This document shows, piece after piece, positions 25,574 through 25,746 of a stretch of DNA of 64,000 bases (its first letter is position 1; each line of letters opens with the position of its first letter). The DNA comes from a virus. Made by a program: the position numbers and the translations under genes. The notes under the pieces were generated by a model, which saw only the letters and a list, made by a program, of their open reading frames with translations, was not told the DNA's origin and searched no databases. The stretch is taken from positions 32,001-96,000 of IMG/VR virus record IMGVR_UViG_3300035171_000016. The stretch is one strand, 5' to 3'.

Positions 25574-25657
25574 TGGTCGCCCTGACAGGACTTCAACCTG
25601 CAAAACCACCCGTTCTAAGCGGGCAAGCTGTGGCGTTCGCTACAAGGTCACAGGGCG
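25574..25657 (-). tRNA. Atypical tRNA-Leu(TAG): 8-nt insertion after position 9, no V-arm hairpin
   Basis: GCCCG-CTTAGAA-CGGGT; A73. Confidence 0.8.
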
Positions 25658-25661
25658 GAAA

Positions 25662-25746
25662 TGGTCGCATCGCGGAGACTTCAACTCCGAAAACTCTACG
25701 TTTTGAATGTAGTGGCTGTAGCAATTCGCGCTTATGTCACGATGCG
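25662..25746 (-). tRNA. Atypical tRNA-Leu(CAA): 8-nt insertion after position 9, no V-arm hairpin
   Basis: Anticodon loop TTCAAAA; A73. Confidence 0.8.

Follow-up and report, generated by a model that had tools for sequence, protein, structure and literature searches.

Can a phage decode leucine with tRNAs whose core is not a cloverleaf? The cloverleaf is among the most conserved of RNA folds, and a departure from it at one locus raises the question of what the genes there encode. According to a recent paper, every known bacterial tRNA has this fold (PMC11551756). The locus lies in a stretch of 64,000 nucleotides (hereafter the window), which is bases 32001-96000 of a 147,760-bp IMG/VR virus record with a completeness of ~95% by CheckV. 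The phage has a G+C content of ~29%, and its gene content (a DnaB-like helicase, a UvsX-like recombinase, ribonucleotide reductase and a homing endonuclease) points to replication and nucleotide metabolism; the homing endonuclease gene, of GIY-YIG/HNH type, lies at window 42109-43380 on the plus strand, opposite to its neighbours. No relative emerged among GenBank phages by megablast of the 9.5-kb tRNA array or blastn of the Leu gene pair, nor from pattern searches with a flanking protein and the helicase. A dense tRNA array occupies ~17.5-27 kb of the window on the minus strand, and within it the original prediction had placed three tRNA-Leu genes, each with a 6-nt variable region and without a variable-arm hairpin. 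All of this held on inspection, with every gene on the minus strand (bit scores are from R1, a covariance model that we built from these three genes and in which pairing is confined to the acceptor, anticodon and T stems; "X-type" denotes the fold described below):

25574-25657, minus strand: tRNA-Leu(UAG), 84 nt with encoded CCA, X-type fold, 97.5 bits
25662-25746, minus strand: tRNA-Leu(CAA), 85 nt with encoded CCA, X-type fold, 99.2 bits; 4 nt upstream of tRNA-Leu(UAG)
18449-18533, minus strand: tRNA-Leu(UAA), 85 nt with encoded CCA, X-type fold, 98.3 bits; 4 nt upstream of tRNA-Ser(GCU)

The 5' half of each gene runs through a 7-bp acceptor strand, U8, G9, eight nucleotides, GCGAA...ACAGC and two more nucleotides; the 3' half has the anticodon stem (5 bp, 7-nt loop), then the 6-nt variable region and the T stem (5 bp, again with a loop of 7 nt), and ends in the second acceptor strand, A73 and CCA. 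The pairing proposed at the outset between the insertion and the variable region (ACC/GGU, AC/GU and CCC/GGG) is real, and a G9-U pair extends it. We define the resulting element, helix X, as G9 and the next three nucleotides paired with the first four nucleotides of the variable region:

25646-25649, minus strand: helix X 5' strand of Leu(UAG), GACC (G9 plus three inserted nucleotides); partner GGUU at 25604-25607
25604-25607, minus strand: helix X 3' strand of Leu(UAG), GGUU (variable-region nucleotides 1-4, immediately 3' of anticodon-stem position 43)
25735-25738, minus strand: helix X 5' strand of Leu(CAA), GACA, the final A standing opposite A; partner AGUU at 25692-25695
25692-25695, minus strand: helix X 3' strand of Leu(CAA), AGUU
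18522-18525, minus strand: helix X 5' strand of Leu(UAA), GCCC; partner GGGU at 18479-18482
18479-18482, minus strand: helix X 3' strand of Leu(UAA), GGGU

Counting the G9-U pair, helix X is 4 bp long in Leu(UAG) and Leu(UAA) and 3 bp plus an A-A mismatch in Leu(CAA), a mismatch that recurs in related CAA and CAG genes. When single sequences are folded thermodynamically, the 4-bp helix is present in the minimum-energy folds of the UAG and UAA genes and absent from that of the CAA gene, centroid folds often come without it, and the folding energies are no better than those of shuffled sequences (z -0.3 to -1.4). Short reading frames that overlap the Leu genes (e.g., 25573-25794 on the plus strand, 73 aa) were not accepted as genes, since sequence change here follows stem compensation.

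The inserted segment had been described as exactly eight nucleotides long. Eight nucleotides do separate G9 from GCGA, yet the eighth belongs to the D arm: it covaries with N25, the nucleotide after ACAGC (A-U in 6, U-A in 5, G-C in 4 and C-G in 2 of 24 aligned genes), and is therefore N10, so the eight-nucleotide reading is rejected in favor of a true insertion of seven. The flanking GC...GC supplies D-stem pairs 11-24 and 12-23, followed by G13-A22 (24/24), and the D loop is arranged as in bacterial tRNA-Leu, for example that of E. coli. In the window genes the seven nucleotides divide into three that pair and a 4-nt linker. Across the family the linker between helix X and N10 measures 3-4 nt, the extra nucleotides between G9 and N10 number 5-7, and the variable region spans 6-8 nt; in the aligned subfamily the first linker nucleotide is an invariant U, the sole invariant linker position. 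As judged from these sequences, the novelty of the X-type genes is confined to three pairing nucleotides and a 3-4-nt linker between G9 and N10, plus a variable region 1-3 nt longer than that of class I.

The case for helix X comes from covariation. The original prediction saw this among the three paralogues, which by themselves compensate at a single pair only, and the claim thus rests on homologues, which give it strong support. The scan pattern with which we searched for these fixes only residues of the D arm, anticodon loop and T loop; because the seed pattern fixes GCGAA...ACAGC, the homologue set is biased to one subfamily, and paralogues found by covariance model widen it. An alignment (A4) of 24 genes, drawn from the window plus 20 further contigs, was built with MAFFT and no structure fitting. 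Helix X is 93.8% paired in A4 (columns 9-12 with 52-55), with these counts over the 24 genes:

Pair 1 (G9 with variable-region nucleotide 4): GU 24
Pair 2: AU 15, GC 7, CG 1, UA 1
Pair 3: CG 15, GC 8, AU 1
Pair 4: CG 10, UA 6, AU 1, GC 1, with 6 mismatches

Most of these mismatches are A-A, in CAA and CAG genes. Covariation in a homologue alignment, the kind of check that the original prediction had named, came out in its favor: the helix X covariation score in A4 is 0.699, against 0.185 +/- 0.040 in 500 shuffles (0/500 reach it), and it falls to at most 0.147 when the partner strand is slid by 1-3 columns. The four classical stems score about as high in A4. RNAalifold, given only A4, returned exactly the five-helix fold, helix X included. 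Independently of any alignment, we took 50 distinct genes, fixing the 5' strand at position 9 and the 3' strand 2-3 nt ahead of the T stem; helix X averaged 3.62 bp versus 2.31 +/- 0.12 in 10,000 permutations (0/10,000 reach it). The helix has at least 3 bp in 47 of the 50 genes and occurs in 25 sequence variants (e.g., GACG/CGUU, GAGU/ACUU, GUGC/GCAU, GGUU/AGCC and GUAGC/GCUAC). A second subtype, with a 7-8-nt variable region, pairs G9 with C and reaches 5-6 bp, which brings the family range to 3-6 bp; the helix is weak or absent in a few relatives (both L006 genes and L091:9171-9255). Together, the alignment covariation, the unaided RNAalifold fold and the permutation test back the suggestion of an alternative core formed by pairing of the insertion with the variable region.

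How widespread is this fold, and why would it have been overlooked? In IMG/VR, 23 of 27 pattern loci proved to be true members (genes of 54-87 bits) on contigs of 4.5-455 kb, several of which are complete jumbo phages. A scan of prokaryotes with the same pattern (one genome per species, 185,579 species) gave 32 loci, of which 4 are true, each of these 4 inside a tRNA array. Loci L008, L013, L019 and L021 and the other 28 prokaryote loci are not members, with no covariance-model score or a weak one. A second covariance model that includes helix X (R2), applied to the same records, found more paralogues, including the second subtype. X-type tRNA-Leu(UAG) genes, each with a helix X of 3 bp, are also present in two cultured phages and unannotated in both: Synechococcus phage BUCT-ZZ01 (ON615601.1; L100:2994-3076; 73.7 bits) and Rhizobium phage RHph_I1_18 (MN988519.1; L103:2501-2583; 71.7 bits), the latter in an annotation gap between tRNA-Pro and tRNA-Tyr. 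RHph_I1_18 further has, near its array, a gene annotated as an amber-reading tRNA-Pyl(cta) (L103:855-932, plus strand). Candidates from two other cultured phages were set aside as not X-type, that of Lactobacillus phage LpeD being a 77-nt class-I-like gene and that of Xanthomonas phage BUDD a canonical class II gene.

Standard tools handle these genes poorly. With default settings ARAGORN called none of the three window Leu genes, and the Rfam tRNA family RF00005 had no match at E<=1 at any of them; relaxed ARAGORN gave truncated 76-77-nt folds for two of the three. Their relatives are mostly missed by ARAGORN as well, and others are miscalled as tRNA-Ile(aat) or tRNA-Ala(agc) or are truncated (L002:1362-1443, L006:2708-2790, L010:2789-2865 and L026:720-796). 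Because standard finders miss or mistype X-type genes, phage tRNA inventories are likely under-counted. Beside the X-type arrays of a MAG contig and of an Opitutaceae chromosome, an RtcB-like tRNA ligase (phrog_1075) and an RNA-binding protein (phrog_850) are encoded (L090:13551-14648, minus strand; L093:10810-12420, plus strand), which suggests an RNA-repair neighborhood.

Do the genes look like tRNAs that work? The general features of a tRNA are in place: in A4 the acceptor stem is 100% paired with compensation at all 7 pairs, the anticodon stems covary, and the T arm has a 5-bp stem and a 7-nt loop with U54-A58 in 24/24; A73 is likewise present in 24/24, and the three window genes also encode CCA. 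Anticodon loops are 7 nt long with U33 and A37 in the aligned genes, G37 occurring in a few second-subtype genes. The anticodon is a Leu one throughout the family (UAA, CAA, UAG and CAG in the aligned set, GAG and AAG in the wider set). All 24 aligned genes also share U8, A14, A15, G13-A22 and a UU before the T stem, its last U being position 48. At the elbow, pair 18-55 is G-U in 12 genes and A-G in 11, and pair 19-56 is G-C in 21 and C-G in 3, with C19-G56 in the window's UAG and CAA genes; from the alignment, the elbow pairs are evidently rewired by compensation. The leucine identity set of the E. coli and Aquifex LeuRS comprises A73, A14, A15-U48, 18/19-55/56 and U54-A58 (PMC6614811, PMC2377443), and these elements are present or covarying in 24/24 aligned genes. 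The conserved leucine identity elements and Leu anticodons support the suggestion that the three genes are functional.

That suggestion had leaned on their being the only Leu tRNAs in the array, and this extends beyond the array: in the whole 147,760-bp record, neither the covariance model nor ARAGORN (default and relaxed) found a tRNA-Leu besides the three X-type genes. Relaxed ARAGORN did report a tRNA-Leu(aag) at 17449-17536, but this is spurious, with no cloverleaf, a folding z-score of 0 and a start within apparent coding sequence. Leucine makes up 8.7% of codons in the phage's long reading frames (TTA 52%, CTT 18%, CTA 17% and TTG 9% of Leu codons), and the anticodons UAA, CAA and UAG fit this usage. 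The LeuRS-specific domain PF13603 has no match anywhere in the phage, so the host LeuRS would have to do the charging. A type I tRNA-Leu is reported not to have been charged by LeuRS enzymes apart from that of Streptomyces (PMC6614811), and charging of an arm-less tRNA-Leu by a host enzyme can therefore not be assumed. The tRNA-Ser(GCU) beside Leu(UAA) is an ordinary class II tRNA that retains its long arm, which makes sense because SerRS reads that arm as an identity element (PMC7609411).

The array holds further oddities. At 17946-18031 (minus strand) lies an 86-nt tRNA-Arg(CCU)-like gene that is called by relaxed ARAGORN only, with a hairpin 3' of the anticodon arm and weak tmRNA and tRNA-clan matches in Rfam. 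In a tRNA-Tyr(GUA)-like gene at 26245-26333 (minus strand; folding z-score -2.1), a 6-bp helix CUCAAC/GUUGAG around the anticodon arm replaces the D hairpin in the minimum-energy fold; the principle is that of helix X, a 5' connector pairing with the region 3' of the anticodon arm. At the distal array end, 16441-16691 (minus strand) weakly matches archaeal-type RNase P RNA, at 18.3 bits (E=0.09) and thus well short of the gathering score.

Taken together, these data make it likely, on the strength of sequence comparison, that the X-type genes are working elongator tRNA-Leu with a non-cloverleaf five-helix core, charged by the host LeuRS. The secondary structure comprises two three-way junctions, one nested inside the other (acceptor/T arm/helix X, then helix X/D arm/anticodon arm), rather than a single four-way junction with a variable arm: U8 is followed by the helix X 5' strand, the linker and an ordinary bacterial tRNA-Leu D arm, with two U linking helix X to the T stem. 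Since its 3' strand runs on directly from the anticodon stem, helix X is probably stacked there and would lie alongside the short D stem. Its four pairs would have about the height of the D stem plus position 26, and the two helices could stand next to each other, reaching from the anticodon stem top to the U8-A14 and A15-U48 layers, with helix X in the role of the base triples and variable-arm base by which a class II core is normally braced. The L shape is probably kept, since the elbow pairs covary and the U8-A14 and A15-U48 layers are intact. Host LeuRS would then charge the molecule via A73 and core elements corresponding to the known E. coli/Aquifex identity set; recognition may depend mainly on A73 and the core and less on the sequence of the long arm, though arm orientation and length seem to matter for some enzymes.

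Several other explanations deserve weighing. The presence of several other odd tRNA-like genes in the phage could favor the idea that these are tRNA-shaped RNAs that do not decode at all (i.e., nuclease decoys, sensors, primers or regulators). We regard this as unlikely: the anticodon loops are canonical (7 nt, U33, purine 37), the six Leu anticodons across the family are distributed like a decoding set, A73 and CCA are conserved, the anticodon stems covary, and the genes are the sole Leu tRNAs in an array that otherwise serves many amino acids. That neither ARAGORN nor Rfam calls the genes would also suit decaying pseudogenes or chance complementarity, to which we give almost no credence, as more than 50 distinct genes on unrelated contigs keep every stem by compensation together with all invariant tRNA-Leu core residues.

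Two further explanations accept real tRNA-Leu and dispute helix X. It could lie outside the working fold, as an alternative or transient conformer or with different tertiary contacts made instead, and its short length (3-4 bp), its G-U start (24/24 in the aligned subfamily), the tolerated A-A mismatch in CAA and CAG genes and its frequent absence from centroid folds would all agree with this. We nonetheless consider it very unlikely, given Watson-Crick compensation at three of the four pairs, at a level like that of the acceptor, anticodon and T stems, and given that other subfamilies have 5-6 bp with G9 paired to C. The inserted nucleotides might otherwise be a tiny intervening sequence, excised after transcription to leave a 77-78-nt class-I-like tRNA-Leu, with the pairing serving only the precursor. 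Class-I-like genes for tRNA-Leu (74-78 nt), which share this D loop and have no insertion, do exist in related arrays and in T5-like phages, so deleting the insertion would yield a plausible tRNA. Even so, excision strikes us as highly improbable: to our knowledge, no bacterial or phage mechanism removes 5-7 nt between positions 9 and 10, there is no conserved cut-site motif (only the first linker U is invariant), and the variable region, 1-3 nt longer than in the class-I-like genes, covaries with the insertion, as would befit a lasting structural partner.

If the X-type genes are working tRNA-Leu with a five-helix core, what might the phage gain? The defenses Septu and Retron-Eco7 attack tRNA-Tyr by cleavage or degradation, Septu cutting within its variable loop, and tRNAs supplied by phages can rescue infection (PMC13096335, PMC12673091, PMC11555353). 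By analogy, loss of the exposed variable arm might protect the phage's leucine decoding from host tRNA-cutting nucleases, a suggestion that we offer tentatively. In a similarly speculative vein, the five-helix fold could constitute a third structural class of tRNA that arose in phages for counter-defense: with the connectors buried in helix X and the exposed arm gone, such a tRNA would remain chargeable by host LeuRS yet be a poor substrate for tRNA-disabling host nucleases. X-type tRNA-Leu would provide a concrete test case for whether phages reshape tRNAs to escape such defenses, and the cultured phages that carry them (one infecting a laboratory cyanobacterium, one a Rhizobium) put experiments within reach. 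More broadly, the X-type genes are a natural and widespread family, on which selection apparently acts and whose core has been rebuilt with the leucine-charging signals kept. The fold would show how much change in the tRNA core the translation machinery may tolerate and could offer a natural scaffold for orthogonal tRNA engineering. It is not described in the literature that we searched, which does not mean that it is unpublished; a review of natural non-canonical tRNAs (PMC7609411) includes no phages, and we found in it no pairing between the 8-9 connector and the variable region.

Among known tRNAs, the closest likeness is to class II tRNA-Leu as in E. coli, with which X-type genes have in common a length of ~85 nt, a 3-bp D stem with G13-A22, the D-loop residues A14, A15 and 18/19, the A15-U48 and U54-A58 pairs, A73 and Leu anticodons. 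They differ in having no variable-arm hairpin, a 6-8-nt variable region and 5-7 extra nucleotides between G9 and N10, and in that helix X joins two connectors and so creates a different junction topology. A class II tRNA has a variable arm of more than 10 nt that forms a hairpin between positions 45 and 48, where the window genes have 6 nt and no hairpin. The class I definition (a 2-nt connector at 8-9, an unpaired 4-5-nt variable loop and one four-way junction) does not describe them either.

The premise that bacterial tRNA-Leu are class II, from which the original prediction set out, has exceptions: type I tRNA-Leu are known from mitochondria and from Streptomyces coelicolor, as tRNA-Leu(CAA) (PMC6614811), and T5-like Vibrio phage vB_ValS_X1 has 77-nt class-I-like genes that are annotated as tRNA-Leu. 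Related phage arrays in fact mix three kinds of tRNA-Leu, i.e., class II (83-90 nt), class-I-like (74-78 nt) and X-type. Class-I-like genes of 77-79 nt with neither arm nor insertion adjoin X-type or canonical genes in these arrays (L018:760-836, minus strand; L025:9479-9557, plus strand; L102:2989-3065 and 3103-3179, plus strand). Type I tRNA-Leu resemble X-type ones in the missing long arm, the bacterial-type D loop and A73, and the two share phage arrays; type I genes, however, keep the cloverleaf, with a 2-nt 8-9 connector, a 4-5-nt variable loop, no insertion and no helix X. Nature has other adaptors that are not cloverleaves and are L-like, as X-type tRNAs would be, namely tRNA-Sec (8/5, 9/4), allo-tRNAs (8/4, 9/3; PMC5389517), tRNA-Pyl and the arm-less mitochondrial tRNAs (PMC7609411). 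Whereas these change the lengths of their stems or lose arms, X-type tRNAs pair their connectors.
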